A stretch of 64,000 nt of DNA, from NCBI RefSeq assembly GCF_035594765.1, contig NC_085841.1, positions 246,594,689 through 246,658,688 on the forward strand, in the 5' to 3' direction. The stretch is from Anolis carolinensis (taxonomy: Eukaryota). Each line of letters begins with the position of its first letter. The stretch's first letter is position 1. The position numbers were made by a program, and so were the translations under genes. Of the stretch, positions 2,582 through 49,280 are shown piece by piece. The notes under the pieces were generated by a model. It saw nothing but the letters and a program-made list of their open reading frames with translations, was not told the origin of the DNA and made no database searches.

Positions 2582-4211
2582 GTGTGGGGGACATAGTTTT
2601 AAAAGGGACTTTTCAGGGGTACTTGCAATGACTATAAGTCCCATATGTCCTGATTTATGTTTGGATGTTACTTTTCAAGGATAAAAGTACATCAAGACAG
2701 AACTGGTTAGCTAGTACTCCCTAAGTTTCCCAGCCATTTTGGAGTTATGCTTGCAATGGAAGTAGATAAGCCTGGCTGGAGGATACTATGCTCAGGGTCA
2801 GTGCCATGAAAATACTATTGTCTAAAGAATCACATGTTGTTTCATGATGTTGTTTTTTTGCTTCTTAGAACAGAGAAACAAATGGAAATGTATGTTAGTT
2901 AAGATGCTTGTGGCGTAATCAATTTTAGACCAAAGAGATGATTGATCTTTGAAGACCAATAAGAATGTGTTTTCAACTTTCTATGAAAGTAATAAAAAGC
3001 CTTGCAACCCCATTTCAGGTTGCGACAAAATCTTTGATAGCATTCCTGTATGCATTTTGTTGTTATTGCTATGGCCACGCAATAAACAGCCTTTTTGCAT
3101 TTTGAAGATCCAACTTTCATGGTGTCCTTCCTCGCCCTCTCCACTGGAAGAGGGCTCCTGCTTTTGAACTTGGATTAAAGGAGTACTTTTTGCATCTTTG
3201 CCCCTTCAAGAGCACCCCTGACAGATGGCCATCCAGCCTCTGCATACATATGACTGAGGCTAGTGAACATTTTTCACTAGCAGACATTGAAGATATGTAT
3301 ATGTTCTCCCAAACTATTATGCATAATACCTCACTACAGCTCATTGTTCATTCTCCGTTCAGAGCATTTGAAGTTTGTTCTCTATTCAGGCTGCTTGATT
3401 GGAATAAATTGGTCTAATTGTGAAATGAACTGCCACTTTTCTTTCCCCCTTCACCCCCTGCCCCACTCCTGGATTAAATGAGACTATGGCAAATGAGTTG
3501 CTTTTTCAGGCTGACACCTATCGCAATAGCAAATACTACCTATAACATAAGCTTTATCTCTGAGTTGAAATGACTCCATCCAAATAAAGGACATATTCTA
3601 TTATCCTCGCTCACATTTTACCTTAATCTCCAATTTTATTATGCTTTCTTTTCTCTTTTTCTGATTCTAATGGCAGTGCCTCCTGCATTTCTTTTAAGTT
3701 GCCTTAAGCAGATGTTGTCATTCAAAAGTATTTTGACAGGAATCAAAGCCAGACCAAAAATGATGATTGACTCCTGTGATTCTGTAAGTTTTCCTTTGTT
3801 TACATGCAACTCCTTCTGTCCAAATCACTTTGATTGAGGTTCTGATGTTTCTAATTTAAAGACAATTGCTATATCTTAGAGGCATGAATGATCATTCTAT
3901 TACTGAAAGAGCAGACAGCATTGGGCAGGCTCCAAATGGCTTCTTCAAAGCAATGCTGGAAGAAAAAAAGCAGTTCTTCCCTACCGTGTGCATCTGTGAA
4001 GATGCTATCTCTGGACTTGGATAATATTGCTGGATCTTTTACAGCCTGTGTTCTTCTTTGACTTCTGAGACCTCGTTTCATATGCTCCCCAACTTCTCTG
4101 ATTGATCCTCATTTATGCCGTTCAACTTTTTTAACTTCCAAAATGAATTTATGGAACTTATGTGTGGAAGTATAGATTTTCAGCTTTACTTCACATGTCA
4201 GAATTCAAAGA

Positions 4212-5078: not shown

Positions 5079-7223
5079 ATTTCTGAACACATTAAGAGGA
5101 AATATATTCCTAGCCAAATCACTGACAGCACTAAATGTTATCCATGACCAACCTATGGCCTTCATTAGGTAGTAAAAAAAAGAAATACCTTCAAGTGAGA
5201 TTGTTTACTAAGAATTTCTTTCTTTCAATTGCCACACTAAAAGAGGAAGAAGAAATGCTACAGGTTTGTTTACAAATCTATAAATGATGGGCTATTAGAA
5301 AACCCTGCTTAATACACTGTCCATCTGCTAGCTTCTAAATATAAATGTGAAAATGTTTTTTCTTTCCCTTTTCACATTTACTAGCACAGTATCTCAGCAA
5401 CTGTAGATTTGTTGTCATTAGACCATGAACTATAGCATTTGCCATCAACACTGATGAATAAATATTCCAGCTTAATGATTTATTCATGATGAATGATAAT
5501 GTGACTGTACACATACCACAGAATGCTTATAAGCAAGTCAGCCAAAAAAAAAAAAACCACCTTAGAAACAAATAAGTTTTATTTGGCACAAGCTTTTGTG
5601 GGCCAGAGCCCATTTTATCATTCTATAGATGTGCCACGAATGCCCAAGCTTGTTAGTCTGCAATGTGCTCAAACACTCCTTAATGCCCTTTGTTCTGACC
5701 GACTAAAGTGACCACACCATAAAATGATTGGAAAGTTGTAGAATCTAAGGTGATTTTGCACACCCATACACATACCAGTCTCCAACACTTCCGGCATCCC
5801 GATTTTTAATTTTGAGAACATGGTCAATTTCCCCCCACATTCCTTAGGGGCAACTTTGTCATGGAGCATTTTAACATTGGGACAGCCTTTTTAAAAAACA
5901 GGAATTGGCTTTCATTCAACTTTCGGTTTAAAAAAAAGCCTCTCCAGAACCTAAAAAGGGTAACGGAGGCAAAACCATTGGTAAACTGTATCTCAGTACT
6001 CTCTCTGGTACATGAAAGTCATTTCCTTTCCCTATCAATGAAAGTTTAAAAGTGAAAGTGAAGTTAGTCAGTGGAAGAATGTGCAACTTTTCAAAAAACC
6101 ACTCACCTTCCATGAGGTGTTAATTCTCTTCTTGCTTCTGTCCACATCTCCTAGGAAGCAAGAAAGTTCTTACTCATTAATGACCCAGATAGGGCGAGGA
6201 AGGAAATGTAGTATTTTGACTGGATTGGCATGCCACATTAAGCACACAAAAAAAACCTGGTTATGTGTATTCAGTCTGCAAGAGTTGGTGCATACAACCC
6301 ACTTAATTTCACTTTACTAAACCCACTTGCATGACTAGCCAAACAAAGACATAGCTGGTTACTGGTATACCTTCTCAGTATCCCAATTTGCCCAGTTCAG
6401 TTCCTACTTATCATCTGTCATCCCGCTTTTTAAGATACTTTTAAAGTATTCCAGCTGTTCCAGTTGCTGTGAACTGAATTCAAAGTACAAGAATAGTTTT
6501 CACCTCGTTAACTCAGGAGTGTGGAAAAGAAGAAGAGACAATGGAATCTTGTCCTTTCATGTAGGCTCAGGAAAAAGCAAACCCTTTCTAGGTTGTCTTT
6601 TCTTCCTCCCTTCCTTCCTTTCCCCCCTTCCTTCCCAAAAGGTTATGAGCAGAGAGTCTATTTAAGTTTGTAAAACAAGGGAAATATATCATTTTTGACT
6701 GTATATTTATATAGGTTTGTTTCATAATCTGAGGCATGATAATCTATTGAGCTAAGTGAGGCATTCACTTGAGACAATGGATGCAGTAGATCCACTGATG
6801 ATATTTATCAATGCTTCTTAAAGAGTTTTGATTTTAATGAGTTGTCAGTAAGCCTTCCACAAGTACAAACAACAGGACAAGCCTGAAGAAAGGTCCCATG
6901 TGCTACAAGGAAGGTGCTGTGGAATTCAAAGAGTAGAAATAGGATTTGTGACTGCCAAAAAGGATGTGTATGTCCCCAACAAGATATGAGTTGTCTATTA
7001 CCTGGTCAAGCAGGTTTCACCCAGATTCCCCTTATTCTTATTTCTCCAATCAGCCAGTGCCAGAACATTCCCATTGATTCCTTATTGACTTCTGATTACA
7101 AGAACCCAACTTGTGATCTCAGGTCTCATCCCTGAAATCTCAAGGAATGGGAAACAGCTGAATTGGCTTCTCTGGTGGCTGCATCAGGATAGCCTGACAA
7201 GTTGAGCTGCGTGATAGTGTTTG

Positions 7224-8709
7224 TGTTGTGAATGCGCCTTCGGAGACTGTGAATGATAGTGGTGGGATCAGGAGAGGAAGGAAAAACCCTCGTGAGGAGG
7301 GCTCGTTGGAGGATTTGTTTAGGAAAAGCATCAGGGAGACTGATGGGGAGTCTTCTGAGGAGGATTCATGTGGGGATCCTGAGGTGGAAATGGATGCTGG
7401 GGAACAGGTGTTAATGGAGGAATTGGGTACAGACTGGGCACGGGCACCGGAGATGCTTGGGGATGAATCGGAGTCCATGGATACTGCTGATGCTGGAGAA
7501 GCTTGGGTGTCTTCAAACGCAGATCCCACTTGGTCTGCTTGGAGGAGTGAGAGGGGGTCCACAGGTATGGATAGAGTTGGGCATGGGCAGGATGACTGGG
7601 ACTCTGATGAGGAATTCGGAACACTTGACCCAAGGGCATTGGCTGTGTGGAGTTCTGATTCAGATTAAGAAGTTGAGACACCTGCTCTTTGAGCGTGGAT
7701 AGTTTGGAAGCCCAGGGAGACCTGGATATATTGGGGTTGTTTGGCCATTATACCTTGTGTGTGGCAAGGTGTTGCTGGGCACCATTGGATTTCTTGTGTG
7801 TGTTACTGAAGACTGGACTTGGACTTTGCAATGGATGTAAGTTTAATCTGGGTTATTCTGCAACGGAGAGCTGGAATTGTGTGGGTTTTCCTGGATTGCA
7901 CTGTTATTACTATTTTGTATTAGCTGCTGTTAGCCCTCGTTGCTTTGGCTCTCTGTGCCATTTCATGTTGTGACCTTCTTGGATGACTTCAACCTCTCGG
8001 ACCTTGGACTGGTACTTGACTCAGCTTTGCTCTTCGCTCTCAATCCGTGGCTTGGTGTCGTTCTCTATTCCGTGGCTGTCTGCTGTTGCTGACTATTACC
8101 TTCACTCCTGATACCGACGCTGTCTGCTTATCCCGACTTTGGACTGGCTTGACGACATTCTCCCGCTCTGCTCCTTTAACTCCTGGCTTGGCGTTTGCTT
8201 CTGCAGCAGCTTGGCGCTGCTGGTTTATCCCGACTTCGGACCGGCTTGAAGACGCTTTCCCGCTCTGCTCCTTTAACTCTTGGTTTGGTGTATGTTCCAG
8301 CAGCGGTTGCTGCGAACTCGCCAGCATCTCGCTGTTTTGCTGGCTTTGCTGCTCTCAACTGGGAGTTCCCTAGCTCAGTTTGGGCATTTGTTTGTTTTGA
8401 ACTCCTATTTGTACTTTAGAGTTTTGGGAAAGGTTTGTGGGCTTCAATACTACTTACTTTAGTTCATGCCTCCGTTTTTCAGCCCATTGTGAACTTTTGG
8501 GTCAAGTTCTAGAACTTTAAATTTAACCTGGATTTAACTCTAATCCGGATTATTTGCCAGTTCTTGTTTTTTGGGGTTTTACCCGCTTGTTCTACTTAAT
8601 AGCACTGAAAGTTAAGTGTTTTAAGTCTTTTTAGTTTGTTGAGCTATTTTTTGGACTGTTGCTTTAATAAACTCTATTTTGCTCTCTAATTGGCATCTGA
8701 CTTTTGACA
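7224..8709 (+). mobile_element. Solo LTR (1486 bp), LTR retrotransposon, probably Ty3/Gypsy
   Basis: Begins TGTTGTG, ends TTGACA; exact 5-bp TSD GTTTG at 7219-7223 and 8710-8714; AATAAA at 8666-8671; internal ~97-bp direct repeat at 8128 and 8225. Confidence 0.85.
7228..7668 (+). CDS. LTR-borne acidic ORF (146 aa, GTG start; frame open from LTR nt 2)
   Basis: ORF track; D/E-rich with basic patches RRGRKNPR and RKSIR; lies at the very 5' end of the solo LTR. Confidence 0.4.
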   Translation: MNAPSETVNDSGGIRRGRKNPREEGSLEDLFRKSIRETDGESSEEDSCGDPEVEMDAGEQVLMEELGTDWARAPEMLGDESESMDTADAGEAWVSSNADPTWSAWRSERGSTGMDRVGHGQDDWDSDEEFGTLDPRALAVWSSDSD

Positions 8710-19440: not shown

Positions 19441-21789
19441 ATTGCTCAGATGAGAAATAAACTACTTAAATGAAAAAAAATTTAAAAAAATTTCTCCACC
19501 TATCCCTAGGTGAAATCACATTTATTTATTTAATGTCAACTTTCTCTCAAAGCAGGACCTAAGGCATTTCTTTTTTAAATAGACATTTTAATTTCATGAC
19601 TTGTTTTTGGAGAAAGACGTGCAAGCTTCATCAAAAATAATCCAGCATTTTCTACACCAAAGTATTTTGGTGCTTTTTTCCCGAACAACTTTGATGACTC
19701 CCAAAATGTGACAAATCTTGTGGCATTTGACCATTTCTTCATAAGGTAGCCCTGATTTTTCCAAACACCTTGTCTCACTGAGGCTAAATATTTTGCAAGT
19801 ATTTTGTATAATCCTGCCAAAAAAAAATGATTGAGGTTCAGTTTCTTCTTTTCAATAATTAGTGAGTTGTGTAAAGAATATTTGTGTTTGTTCATATGCT
19901 TCTGAATTATAAATACACATGTAAATATATCAAGAAAATATCATGGTATGGTTGGAATTAGCCAGTCTATTTGATTTAACCCTTCGTTTATTCTGGATTT
20001 CTACATTCCCTTCTATCAATCACACAGAGACTTTTTTAAAAATAGTCTTGTTTGTCCATGTGGAGCCTGACAGTTAATTATGACTCTCAGCTTCCCTATG
20101 GCAAACAAGAAGCACAAAGGGATAAAACTGTTTGCTTTTGCTTTACAAGGAATTAGGGGATGTGTGCAGTGGATTTGCCAGCATAGAAAAGTCCTTCCTG
20201 TGGCTTTCAGATTTAGAAAGCAATATTTAATAGATCATTTTAAGGCTTAATAAGGAAAATGTCATTTCCTTTCTTAATATATTTCCCCTTATCAAAACTG
20301 AAGAAACTAGAGACTGCTGTGAATTCCCACCCTTGGAACTTGAGTAGAGACAACATGGAAATGCTCTGCACAATATCAAAGATCTCAAAAAGACTGCACA
20401 TAGAAGTCTCTGGTTGACTGTCTTGACTGGGAATGTGACATTTGAAGACGTTCCAACATTTTGCAGATGAAAACCAGAACACATATCTCCAAACAATCTC
20501 AGAGTGTGACTAAGATGGTAAAATTTAGTAATGAAAAGGAAGATACCAGTTACGTGGGACTGTAGAAGTTTGCTTTTGCCTGAGCCATTTGGGAAGGGAA
20601 CAGTTTTACTCCCTCCTCTCCACTTACCCTGCTGAAGTTAATTATCTCCAAATTACATTTGCACTTTACTTTCAGTTTCTTTCAAGAAACCAAAGTATAT
20701 AGTCCCCTATGTAAATATTAACTGTATCTAAAAATTTAGCTTCAATGTACATCCTGTATCATGCACTCAATTCCACAAGCAAGATGTAATAGAACTGCTT
20801 GCTGTAATAAAGAGCTATCCAAGGTTAAGCCCTCCTTCTGAAAGAATAAATAACCAATACTGTAAGAGTAGTTCAAATCAACAAAAAGGTGTATCTTTGA
20901 AGAGGGTAAAATTTCTCATCTTTGAAACCGAATGAACAACTGTAAGTGCCCACCGTTCAGCTTTGGTATTTCCGTTTTTAGTATGAGAACTGTGGCTTCT
21001 CAGTAGCACAATTTTCTGTTATCTTAGCTCCAGAGAGATAGCAGGATGTTAATGCTGAATACGTCCTGGAAAATAACATTCTACGCATTGAAGCTTTTTA
21101 GCAATGCATCTTCAACTGTTCTTACTTAAATATTTCTGTCCCTACTCCATTAGTTAAGTGAGGCTGATAAAATGAAGTGGAAGGCCCATCTATCCAAAAT
21201 ATAGCCTACAGAAAAGGTCAAAACTAGAGCGGGTTTCTATAATTCACAAGTAAACCAAAACACTAAGACATACTGCCTCATTCATATTAGAAAGGTTGTG
21301 TCAAGAAAATAAAGCAGCACAATATTTATCCATTCCTATTACTATGTTTATCAAAGAAGAGAGTAAAGCATAAAAAAGCCATTTTTCTTACATAGGGAAT
21401 GTCTTCTGCTTGTGTTTTTCCCTTTCTTTTCCTATCGCTCTTTGGTGTTAAGTTGCAAAATAAAACAGAGGCTTAAACTGTTTTAATTGACATGCCATCT
21501 CCTCCGGAAATTTTCAAAACTACACTTTTGCAAAGTGACCCATGATAGATCATTCTTCGCATCCTTGCCAATTTCCACAGAATTCTTTGAGAGAAGCCAT
21601 GACAACTCAACATTAGGCTTGCTCAAATAATTCGTTTTCCCCGTTAACCGTTATTAATTCGTTATTTTCATTTGTTTTGAAGCAATTTTGAAGCATTGGT
21701 TGTCACACGTCTGGATATCGCGGTTTCGAATCGCGAGAGGCCGTTTTTCGTTATGTCGTCGTTTTTTTCGTTAGGAAAAAAAAGCTTTT

Positions 21790-22572
21790 GCAAAGCACCC
21801 AAACTCCCACCATTCAGGCCCTTCCCTTTTGCCCCTCAGCAAAAGGGGCGTCACGGGCTCAGCCAATGGGAGGGGGCGAGGGGGAAGGAGGCCGAGGAGG
21901 AGGAGGAAGACGGAGGGGGGAAATGGCCGCCGCCGCCTCGCCTCAGCAGCTGATAATAATTTATTATTATTACCTCCCAAGGGTGATCTCCCAATAGCCT
22001 ACCGAGGAAGGACTGGGCCAGGTTTCTGTCTTCGGGAGGGAGGCTCTCGCGTGTCAGCGCCCAGGAAGGCGAGGCCCGCACGTCTTTCCTTTCTTCTTCC
22101 AGGAGGGAAGGAGGGGGAGAGGGAGGTCCCCCCTTGGTTGCCCTCTTTCCCTCCCGAAGTGGCTCTTGAAAATGGGGCGCTTTTCCCCTTCCCCTCCCGC
22201 CCTTCCCGCGACCTTCCCCAAGGTCTCCCCCGAAGAGCCCACCGACCTTTCCTTTCCTTCGGGCGGCGTCCTCTCCTCCTCCTCCTCGGAAGCCTTGCGG
22301 GGAGGATGGGGCTGGGAGGGAGGGAGGGAGGGTCGCTTAGGAGGCGGAAGGCGAAGGCGGGCGAGGGGCGCGGGCGGCGCTGCTCATGCCTCCCTCACTG
22401 CCTGCCTCTGCTTCTCCCTCTGCCGCCCCCTCCTCCGCTTCCTCCGCCTCCTCCTCGCAAGGCGCATCCAGGCGGGCGGAGGCGGCGGATCGAGACCCCT
22501 TCCCCTCTGCTTCGTCCTCCTCCGGCGGCTGTCCTCCCTTCGCTCGCTCGCCCTTCCCTGCCTGCCAGGCCT
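21790..22572. promoter_or_regulatory. CpG-island / promoter-like segment carried inside the hAT element
   Basis: Very GC- and CpG-rich against an AT-rich background; GGGGCGTCAC, CCAAT (21863-21867), GGGGCG boxes, YY1-like AAATGGCCGCC. Confidence 0.5.
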
Positions 22573-22575
22573 GAT

Positions 22576-22826
22576 ACTCAGAGGTTTTGACGTCTGTGCG
22601 AAGCTAGGCAAGTGGGGTTTATATATCTGTGGAAGGTCCAGGGTGGGAGAAAGAACTCTTGTCTGTGGGAGGCAAGTGTGAATGTTGCAATTGGTCACCT
22701 TGATTAGCATTGAATAGCCTTGCAGCTTCAAAGCCTGGCTGCTTCCTACCTGGGGGAATCCTTTGTTGGGAGGTATTAGCTGGCCCTGATTGTTTCCTGT
22801 CTGGAATTCCCATTTTCTGGGTGTTT
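22576..22826 (-). mobile_element. Penelope pseudo-LTR fragment nested in the hAT element
   Basis: Reverse complement aligns by eye with 59520-59750 (TTCCAGACA.GAAACAATCAGGG..GACAAGAGTTCTT..CACAGATATATAAACC..AACCTCTGAG). Confidence 0.88.
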
Positions 22827-22986: not shown

Positions 22987-23757
22987 ATACACACACACAC
23001 ATTATGCAGGGACTATATATTATATATATACACAGTATATATCACACACACACCAATTTAACAAAGTTTCAGCCACAAAAACAAAGTTTCTGAAGTAGAA
23101 CAATGACTTTCACAGTAAAGACAACCCAATTTAACAGGAAATAAGACTTTCAAACCAGGAACAGATTTCTGCAATTATTAAAAAATGGTTTATTATAAAA
23201 GCTATGAAAATTTGCCAAAAATCAGAGGATAGGGGAAACGTTCCAAATTTTGGTGAGCTATCAGTTTTAAATGTGTTCTACCACTGTACCAAGTTGGAAG
23301 AAGATCACTCAAAAAGTGAGGGTGGGAGAGTCCTGTAAAGTCCTCTCCCTCTGTGCTGTTTTTGGGAATTGCGTATGCGCGTCCGCCATTAACGAATTAA
23401 TTTAGAAAATAACGAATTTTCGTTAATTTCGAAAATTTTGGGGGGCCAAATTCGTAAATAGCAACAAAAACGAAAAACTGCCCCCTCTAGTTTTGAAACG
23501 AGTTTAGAATCAAATTTTTCATGGATCGATCAAGCCTACTCAACATGTGTAAGTAAGCTGATAGCACTGAGACATGGCAGTTAGTGGTGTCAAATTGAAT
23601 TAATTCTACAGTGTGGATGTACTCACAGTTTTATTATTTGTTTATTTATCCCTCCTGGTCTTCAGGAAAAAGCTAAAGACCTGGCTCTGTGCACACGCAT
23701 TCAGGGAGTAGGATAATATGGAATTGGACCTCAACCTATCAATCAAATAATGCCTAT

Positions 23758-24682
23758 TGTGATGACTCATGGGCCATGTAGTCCCGTTCCCAGCACTGTT
23801 GAGACAGATGAAGAGGAAAACTTAGGTTTCCCACCGTTTCAGCCAGAATTGGAGCTTTTTCAGCCAGAATTGGAGCCCTTGCACCTGCAGGAGATTTGCC
23901 TTCCAGAAGTCTGCCAAACAAGCCTTGAGCCGAAATCTCCCCCATTTTCTCACCGTGATTATTATAAACAACAGAAAGGCGCTCAGGAGGCGTCTCGCAG
24001 GAGCGCTAGGATTGCTGCCAGGCATTCAGCTGATTAAGCCTGCTTCCCATGGGAAACTTTAGGGAGTCATGCATCTGGACACAGAGAAGGGCTTTCGGTT
24101 CTGGTTCCCCAGAGAATTGTTCTTTGGCGGGGAAACGAGACCCTATTTAGTTGTTTTGCCCACGTAGGAATCTTGCGGAGTCAATTCGTCAGCTTCGGGA
24201 GTAGGTTGTGTGTGGACTACGCTACTCCCGCGTCCTTTGCTCCCGTTTCCAGCCTTGCCTTGCTTCCCAGGACCTTGCCTTGCTCCACGGACCTTGCCTT
24301 GCCTTCCGGACCTCGCCACGTATTTGCCACGGATCCTGTTCTTGCTCCTCGTTTCTTGTTGCCTTGAATTAAGCCTAGTGTTCCAGGAATCAAGTTTACT
24401 TCCTAGTCTTGCTTAAGCTTCATGGACTAAAGGACCTTGTCATCTCCCCTCACTTTGCTTGGCAAAGTGAGTGTTTCGGTTACTGGATTACAACTTTGGA
24501 CCTTAATATTTCATATTGGACATTGTTTCTTTGGACTAATTTTGACCTTTCCTGAAAGGTCTACTTCTGGACTATTTTCTACACTTGTTTTTATTAACTT
24601 TATATATTTCCACAATAAAGATATTAGATAGATTCTGGCCTCTGTGTATGGTTATTGGTGCTCTGCAGCCTGGGTCCTGACA
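23758..24682 (+). mobile_element. Solo LTR (925 bp), probably Ty3/Gypsy
   Basis: TGTGATG..CCTGACA; exact 5-bp TSD CCTAT at 23753-23757 and 24683-24687; AATAAA at 24614-24619; homologous to 43853-44781. Confidence 0.92.
23762..24037 (+). CDS. LTR-encoded 91-aa acidic peptide ending in RRSARIAAR (intact frame)
   Basis: ATG at LTR nt 5; collinear homolog at 43857-44132 with synonymous codon differences. Confidence 0.55.
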   Translation: MTHGPCSPVPSTVETDEEENLGFPPFQPELELFQPELEPLHLQEICLPEVCQTSLEPKSPPFSHRDYYKQQKGAQEASRRSARIAARHSAD

Positions 24683-24786
24683 CCTATAGGAAAATCAAGA
24701 AGAATGGAACTCATGACTCAGCGCTTTGTATGTTTTTAATCTGTTTTATTGTATTTATATGTTTTAACTGTTTATATGTTTTAACT

Positions 24787-29454: not shown

Positions 29455-29720
29455 TGTCAGGACCATGAGGCAAGAGAAGGAAGAGGAGGCTTGCTTTCCA
29501 GCAACAGAGTCTGAGCCCATTGTGAAGGAACAGCCTGACATGACAAAGAGTGCTACTGCTGAGCAGGAGCCAGGCCCTGCAGAAGCAGCCGAGTGTGGGA
29601 GCAGGACTTAATGCTCCCTGACCAATTACAAATCAGGGCGGATGCAATTCAGCTGCCCAGGTCAAAGAGGTTGGCCCAAAAGAAGAATGACCAGCTGTAG
29701 AACTTTTGCAGCAGTAAAAG
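29455..29720 (+). mobile_element. Probable 5' fragment of an LTR inserted in CR1
   Basis: Starts TGTCAGGA; non-CR1 sequence; acidic frame from nt 2 (VRTMRQEKEEEACFPATESEP..) and, after a frameshift, RSKRLAQKK then stop; no 3' end or TSD seen. Confidence 0.5.
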
Positions 29721-48523: not shown

Positions 48524-49280
48524 CTTTTCAACATCTACATGAAATCACTGGGCGAAGTCATCTGGAGTTTTGGAGTTCAGTGCCACCTCTATGCAGATGA
48601 CACTCAACTACTACTACTCTTTTCCATCAAACTCCAAGGAAGCCCCTCAGGTCCTAGACCAGTGTCTGGCCGCTGTGATGGGCTGGATGAGGGCTAACAA
48701 GCTGAAACTTAATCCTGACAAGACAGAGGTCCTTCGGGTCAGTCATTCAGCCAATCGGAGTATAGGGTGGCAACCTGTGCTCAATAGGGTTACACTCCCC
48801 CTGAGGACACAGGTCCGCAGTCTGGGGGTCCTTCTAGACTCAGCTCTGACTCTTGAAGCTCAGGTATCGGCAATGGCTAGGAGGGCCTTTGCATGAGTAA
48901 AGCTTGTGCACCAGCTGCGACCGTACCTCGTGAAGTCTGATTTGACCATGGTGGTCCATGCCTTACCTCCAGGTTGGACTACTGCAGCCCTCTACATGGG
49001 GCAACCTTTGAAGACAGCCTAGAAACTGCAGTTAGTGCAAAGGGTGGCTGCCAGGCTGTTAACTGGAGCAGATTACAGGGAGCAATTGACCCCCTTGTTC
49101 AAACAGTTCCACTGGCTGCCAATAAGTTTCTAGTCCCAAATCAAGGTGCAGGTTATCACCTATAAAGATTTAAACAGTTCAGGACCTGCCTATCTTCGTG
49201 ACCGCATCTTCCCTTACAGATCTGCATAGTCTCTAAGATCCTCTGAGGAAGCTCTTCTCTCACTTCCACCCCTGTCACAG
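48524..49280 (+). mobile_element. L2 LINE RT fragment, frameshifted
   Basis: [26 protein letters not shown]; [17 protein letters not shown]. Confidence 0.93.

Follow-up and report, generated by a model that had tools for sequence, protein, structure and literature searches.

In a 64,000-nucleotide stretch of Anolis carolinensis contig NC_085841.1 (hereafter the window, meaning the whole stretch), two long terminal repeats (LTRs) encode a peptide that ends in a motif resembling the nucleosome-binding motif of HMGN proteins. Sequence comparison identifies this peptide as the C-terminal end of an integrase from an Anolis chromovirus, in which the pol frame extends past the polypurine tract and into the 3′ LTR; the pattern of codon changes indicates that the motif is under protein-level selection. 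The evidence leans slightly towards the motif being an arginine anchor of the HMGN/Dsup/Dot5 type, which would provide the integrase with a second nucleosome contact via the acidic patch.

Integrase origin of the LTR-coded peptide

When the tail peptide was used to search for longer proteins, four of the 34 candidates matched, all of them from Anolis carolinensis, and three of these are integrase models of 511-517 amino acids that match the peptide along its entire length (100%) at 60-79% identity, with E values down to 2e-40. In all three long matches (P0003-P0005), Integrase_H2C2, rve, SH3_Tf2-1 and Chromo follow one another in this order above the Pfam cut-offs, which gives them the integrase core, the SH3/GPY-F region and the C-terminal chromodomain of chromoviruses. 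The LTRs of the window likewise have the TG...CA ends and short target duplications of that group (CCTAT for the first, LTR A, and CATGA for the second, LTR B). Precomputed domain lists name reverse transcriptase, RNase H, integrase and chromodomain together in one related model, P0047. The three aromatic positions of type I chromodomains were apparently kept (F, W, F, by eye), from which we infer that the chromodomain could bind methyl-lysine.

In the integrase models, the chromodomain is followed by a linker of ~30 residues that leads through the purine-rich junction GLEEGDS/VMTHG, where VMTHG is the LTR start, into ~85-97 residues derived from the U3 region of the 3′ LTR; this read-through of pol is taken from protein models. 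The tail of LTR A, which has an insertion of seven residues, otherwise shares 82 of 85 residues with that of P0017; the closest comparison made for the LTR B tail is with integrase model P0058, whose tail is 49% identical to it (E 3e-19). The "LTR-encoded peptide" of an earlier note on this DNA is therefore indeed coded within the LTR, but it forms the integrase's C-terminus and is not a separate product. Membership of the HMGN family, that is a stand-alone small vertebrate protein with an HMG14/17 domain, does not apply to such a tail.

Searches beyond these models returned little. Pfam gave no family for either P0001 or P0002 with E values allowed up to 1, PDB sequences gave no match to the last 30 residues at E up to 10, and no relatives of P0017 were found among viral contigs. 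The ESM Atlas, queried with residues 425-590, returned chromodomain clusters as the only matches, the tail alone giving none that was usable, and a profile-free search of 1.84 billion representatives gave five matches, namely four Anolis tail-bearing models and one of low complexity.

Compared with chromoviruses in general, the anole element has the same order of integrase zinc-binding, rve, SH3_Tf2-1 and Chromo domains, the same TG...CA LTRs and the same 5-bp duplications, but it adds past the chromodomain a U3-coded tail of 85-97 residues that is first acidic and then basic. The distance from YLxxW to the end of the protein has a median of 53 residues in metagenome chromoviruses, in contrast to 143 in P0017. 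In the plant CRM group A, the integrase frame also extends into the 3′ LTR and carries a targeting sequence (PMC3059260, PMC3605345). However, the CR motif of those elements takes the place of the chromodomain, whereas the anole tail is added past an intact chromodomain that lies upstream of the LTR junction, and the likeness drawn here is one of architecture.

Both LTRs lie on the forward strand and are solo copies. LTR A, a chromovirus-type Gypsy LTR of 925 bp (23758..24682) with TG...CA termini, is flanked by the target-site duplication CCTAT (23753..23757 on the left, 24683-24687 on the right), and LTR B, from a divergent subfamily and 929 bp long (43853..44781), has the same termini and is flanked by CATGA (43848-43852 and 44782-44786); the two share 79% identity across their 3′ 215 bp. 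Each is a single LTR within one target duplication from which the internal coding region is absent. Since the window codes for no integrase core at all (tblastn with 10 integrase models), copies A and B are remnants, and there is probably no peptide output from either.

The tail frame in the U3 of LTR A (23759..24037, with no integrase upstream) comprises 92 open codons followed by TAA, and encodes an acidic spacer (12 D/E and a single K/R in residues 8-59), an SPPF block and a basic end; the HMGN-like motif, RRSARIAAR (23996..24022), starts 13 residues before the stop. In LTR B the frame (43854..44132) has the same phase, is interrupted by an in-frame stop (43986-43988) that precedes the motif, and carries RKSARLAAR (44091..44117), again starting 13 residues before the final stop. 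Thus both tail frames begin at LTR base 2 and end 13 codons past the motif start, and the two tails are homologous, with an alignment score of 143 that was reached by none of 500 shuffles.

It could be argued that the LTR, solo copies included, yields a free peptide of ~90 residues from its own ATG at LTR position 5, which could compete with the host HMGN. There is an in-frame ATG at 23762 (A) and at 43857 (B), VM is invariant in eight of eight subfamily representatives, and host gene models P0002, P0014 and P0042 end in the tail. However, that ATG would belong to the TGTGATG terminus required by the integrase, and it lies upstream of a TATA-like box (TATTTA, 24144..24149, + strand), a candidate U3 promoter 3′ of the tail frame of LTR A which was found by pattern match alone and whose function is presumptive, such that an RNA initiated in the LTR would be expected to exclude it. 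Moreover, the LTR B frame has a stop and the host-fused models are single automatic annotations. A free peptide thus seems extremely unlikely, and the suggestion of the earlier note that such a peptide might mimic HMGN finds no support, given that the solo LTRs have no upstream frame.

Four Anolis gene models (P0002, P0014, P0042 and P0043) are chimeric with the LTR tail or a piece of the integrase, one such model bearing the name calmodulin-lysine N-methyltransferase isoform X1. These chimeras are probably annotation artefacts, and exonization is possible.

Conservation and selection of the terminal motif

Sixty-four Anolis models were taken in, two clusters contributing their listed members (15 of 33 and 15 of 17). 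Eighteen were without a chromodomain, seven without the junction and four were cut short, which left 35 whose tail is complete. The motif is present in every one of these 35. The variants were RRSARIAAK (13 models), RRSLRIAAK (11), RRSARIAAR (4), RRSARITAK (2) and five singletons. R5, I6 and A8 are found in 35/35 tails and R1, R2 and S3 in 34/35, and position 4 is A in 20 and L in 15; the tails hence show the RRS-x-R-[L/I] pattern of HMGN-like motifs, with arginines at positions 1, 2 and 5. The chain ends 13 residues past the motif start in 33 of the 35 models, even though the tails span 85-97 residues.

The earlier note had placed RRSARIAAR at 23996-24022 and RKSARLAAR at 44091-44117, which proved exact, and had called them the best-conserved block. 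Among eight subfamily representatives (<80% identity), the motif is indeed the top 9-residue window (0.78) after the LTR terminus (0.85), the spacer standing at 0.41. A second conserved island is the SPPF block (23936-23947, with a counterpart in LTR B), which lies 20 residues before the motif, has a column identity of 0.71 and is possibly a site of proline-directed phosphorylation or of partner binding. Within the window itself, a search of the six frames gave two instances of the tight pattern R[RK]S[AL]R[LI]A[AT] against a mean of 0 in 100 Markov resamples, a rarity that is overstated since the pattern was derived from the observed motifs; the looser pattern R[RK]S.R[LI] occurs three times against 0.42 expected. 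The LTR B motif has K at position 2.

Could the stretch have been conserved as DNA, with a regulatory function as enhancer or promoter in U3, or have stayed alike by chance, with no role for the peptide? The frame lies within U3, where regulatory sites would be expected, A and B share 69-75% identity in the non-coding part of the LTR past the stop, no less than in the frame, and the motif is limited to one lineage. This explanation is nonetheless very unlikely in our view. Between the two motifs, 8 of 27 bases are different, five of them third positions, and yet seven of the nine residues are kept and the two changes are conservative. Across the last 33 gap-free codons, 18, 21 and 8 of 33 are identical at codon positions 1, 2 and 3, respectively (Fisher p=0.00095), i.e. 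third positions are at chance (8/33) against 39/66 for positions 1-2, a sign of protein-level selection, and the stop is kept at a fixed distance from the motif. In contigs of four runs, 11 of the 22 listed in-frame variants were synonymous versus 0.22-0.31 expected (p 0.003-0.047), as were both listed variants within the first eight motif codons, and the listed indels (12/21) were all 3′ of the tail stop; the weight of these counts is reduced by their being drawn from 40 of 102 substitutions and 12 of 21 indels.

Possible chromatin tethering and its alternatives

The arginine anchor that occupies the H2A E61/D90/E92 pocket is residue five of the motif in both HMGN2 (R26) and Dsup (R367), and H2A E56 and H2B E113 are contacted by the first or the second arginine of the motif (PMC12487698). 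AlphaFold 3 is reported to yield no more than low-confidence models of HMGN2 with the nucleosome (PMC12487698). Nucleosome binding by the yeast Dot5 motif, RRSARIAT, requires R6, R7 and R10 as well as the acidic patch (PMC13347269). The RRSARIAA of LTR A is identical to this Dot5 motif at 7/8 positions, the RRSAR core equals HMGN2 22-26, with an invariant arginine at the fifth position, and the residues with which HMGN2 and Dsup contact the acidic patch are the most conserved ones in the anole tails. It is because of this match to Dot5 and of the invariant residue at the anchor position that we favour an anchor; the kept S, I/L, A and A would also be superfluous for a purely basic signal. The anole tail may hence work like an HMGN motif, with the differences that it stands on a retrotransposon integrase, has L at position 4 in 15/35 tails and gives no match to Pfam HMG14_17 or any other family. 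The earlier note had proposed that the peptide tethers the integration complex to nucleosomes, which requires fusion to the integrase, and its HMGN-like reading gains support now that the peptide has proved to be fused in this way. The contact residues and the match to Dot5 speak for that reading; in the samples covered, however, the motif is limited to anole families.

According to this proposal, the H2A E61/D90/E92 pocket would receive the fifth residue of the anole motif. The integrase would then grip nucleosomes twice, by its chromodomain (methyl-lysine) and by the acidic patch, the anchor being carried on an acidic flexible leash ~130 residues from the chromodomain YLIDW. Such a dual grip could help chromatin to capture the integration complex or to keep it in place, and phosphorylation of the motif serine could turn binding off, as modelled for HMGN2 S24.

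Acidic-patch anchors are known from LANA of KSHV (the Kaposi's sarcoma-associated herpesvirus), IE1 of human cytomegalovirus (HCMV), the chromatin-binding sequence (CBS) in the Gag protein of PFV (prototype foamy virus) and probably p12 of murine leukaemia virus (MLV), none of them on an integrase, and loss of nucleosome binding by PFV Gag redistributes integration sites (PMC9040877). No retrotransposon is named in that review (0 occurrences), which describes the PFV intasome as the exception in making no use of the anchor, and PMC5053271 mentions steering by the chromodomain alone. As in PFV Gag, MLV p12, LANA and IE1, the arginine anchor of a selfish element would hold its genome on chromatin in the anole, but those are Gag-derived or latency proteins with other sequences. 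In the literature searched, whose range covers neither most subscription papers nor repeat databases and which was seen in part, we found no description of acidic-patch tethering by a retrotransposon integrase or of this anole tail. The integrase tail is thus probably undescribed so far; the element class is known, and element sequences of this anole family have probably been catalogued already.

Several points weigh against an anchor. The sequence RRSxR is short and common in basic disordered regions. Outside anoles, [RK][RK]SxR was found in none of 12 non-anole vertebrate tails and in none of 57 metagenome chromovirus tails, the latter coming from a set of 80 loci with a readable chromodomain in 58 and a stop in 57. 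The rattlesnake-type models P0089 (named Crotalus) and P0141, which share one cluster, have ~100 residues past the DSV junction with a long acidic spacer and then a basic end, but this end consists of two basic clusters ~14 residues apart, without RRSxR. The 35 anole tails are closely related gene models, many of them recovered by tail similarity and with expression not established, and nucleotide-only alignments of the whole frame of A and B point in the same direction as the codon comparison, but more weakly and without significance (p 0.06-0.17). In an AlphaFold2 single-sequence model of P0017 (mean pLDDT 37), whose indication of a helix at the C-terminus we regard as weak, the motif stands at the end of a helix of residues 563-586 with pLDDT ~57-61.

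The rattlesnake-type tails bear on the alternative which the earlier note had called simpler, namely that the tail is a nuclear localization signal (NLS) of the integrase, of the importin-alpha type and possibly bipartite with an R/K pair ~14 residues upstream, and that the HMGN likeness is incidental. What keeps this alternative alive is the rattlesnake relative, in which the end of the tail has two basic clusters that resemble a bipartite NLS, and no RRSxR; all of the 12 other vertebrate tails are basic as well. In the anole tails, however, the non-basic S, I/L, A and A are conserved as well as the arginines are, and the two basic residues upstream show lower conservation, with column identities of 0.75 and 0.32. 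The anole motif also has no lysine-led core of the K[KR]x[KR] type that marks a classical NLS, and the fit to a classical bipartite NLS is poor in anole tails and better in those of rattlesnake type. In Ty1, the integrase C-terminus is a bipartite NLS whose linker has acidic residues that matter for import (PMC7459421), a precedent for such a signal here; but Ty1 combines its NLS with a targeting domain, and import and targeting roles can coexist. We consider an NLS with an incidental likeness to HMGN unlikely. Ty1 and Ty5 carry, at the very end of their integrases, short linear motifs that govern import and site choice, as may be the case here (PMC7459421), but those elements are copia-type and their partners are RNA polymerase III AC40 or Sir4, not the nucleosome surface.

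The tail could also be a basic helix for DNA, RNA or another acidic host partner, with a role like that of tails in fish and frog relatives. The last ~24 residues are predicted to be helical with low confidence, and in 5 of the 12 non-anole vertebrate-type tails (P0094, P0105, P0106, P0108 and P0155) the chromodomain is directly followed by one or two RGRP, which we take to be the AT-hook core; P0105, P0106, P0108 and P0155 are fish and frog chromovirus integrases. This possibility appears quite unlikely, since the specificity at the contact positions fits the HMGN/Dot5 pattern and the strongly acidic spacer before the motif would disfavour plain DNA binding.

The tail architecture thus appears to be common to anole and snake, with the motif limited to the anole in this small sample, and the slot past the chromodomain may hold different chromatin-binding motifs by lineage. 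A wider reading, which we put forward tentatively and with slightly more doubt than confidence, is that an abundant anole retrotransposon family evolved an HMGN-type integrase anchor in its own 3′ LTR, bivalent with the chromodomain and possibly under phospho-control at the serine, in a slot that is swappable across vertebrate chromoviruses. Fish and frog elements would fill this slot with RGRP, those of snakes with basic clusters and those of anoles with the HMGN-like motif.

Other features of the window and significance

A third LTR-like fragment ending in RSKRLAQKK had been reported from the window. It lies in an insertion of ~260 bp (29455..29717, + strand, right end approximate) that starts with TGTCAGG within a repeat we presume to be CR1-like, and the acidic frame of this insertion opens in the phase of LTRs A and B. 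However, RSKRLAQKK begins at 29659 (to 29685) and not at 29658, and stands in a frame other than that of the preceding acidic stretch. Read with X at the frame break, its scores against A, B and the snake tail were reached by 191, 518 and 102 of 1000 shuffles, and the comparison with A, B and three other tails is not significant (102-518 of 1000). No tblastn match to the insertion was obtained from the 10 integrase models. The fragment is consequently unsupported as a third homologue, and the insertion is possibly the 5′ piece of another LTR family.

Another LTR-like element (7112-8709, + strand) has TG...CA ends, AATAAA near 8667, two copies of ~90 bp that are 97 bp apart (8118-8304) and, in its 5′ part, a very acidic open frame of 156 codons (7198-7668) without a basic end; it showed no matching target duplication, no similarity to LTR A or B and no Pfam match. 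In LTR A, a match to the AATAAA polyadenylation signal occurs at 24614..24619 (+ strand), with an LTR B counterpart at 44715-44720, and LTR B has a (CCTTG)n pentanucleotide run at 44358-44426, of which a shorter, interrupted version is found in LTR A at ~24254-24305. Contig depth is ~40 in the flank of LTR A and 10^5-10^6 at 23742-23783, a depth that does not equal copy number; in two runs guessed to be RNA, the LTR was covered and the unique flank (23700-23741) was uncovered, which says nothing firm on expression either way.

At a distance of ~1.2 kb, LTR A is preceded by a G+C-rich, CpG-island-like stretch (21700-22600). Directly upstream of the LTR, a pyrimidine tract with CAG at its end (23625-23666) resembles a splice acceptor, so LTR A may be within a host exon. 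No host gene was identified in a Pfam scan of 125 of the 384 frames of >=55 aa, which gave two sub-threshold matches, RVT_1 at 48543-48893 and TRIC at 3574-3834.

If the tail were an NLS only, the gain would be a modest one in annotation, in that integrase tails account for many short "LTR ORFs" (open reading frames) and chimeric gene models of the anole. If an anchor proved true, the integrase would dock directly on the H2A-H2B acidic patch, bivalent with its chromodomain, for which the literature searched gave no precedent. The LTR U3 would then at the same time encode a targeting module, as is known from plant centromeric elements. Should the motif bind, the class of HMGN motifs, lately widened by Dsup and Dot5, would reach mobile elements by convergence, and the element may steer its insertion by a second chromatin hook.
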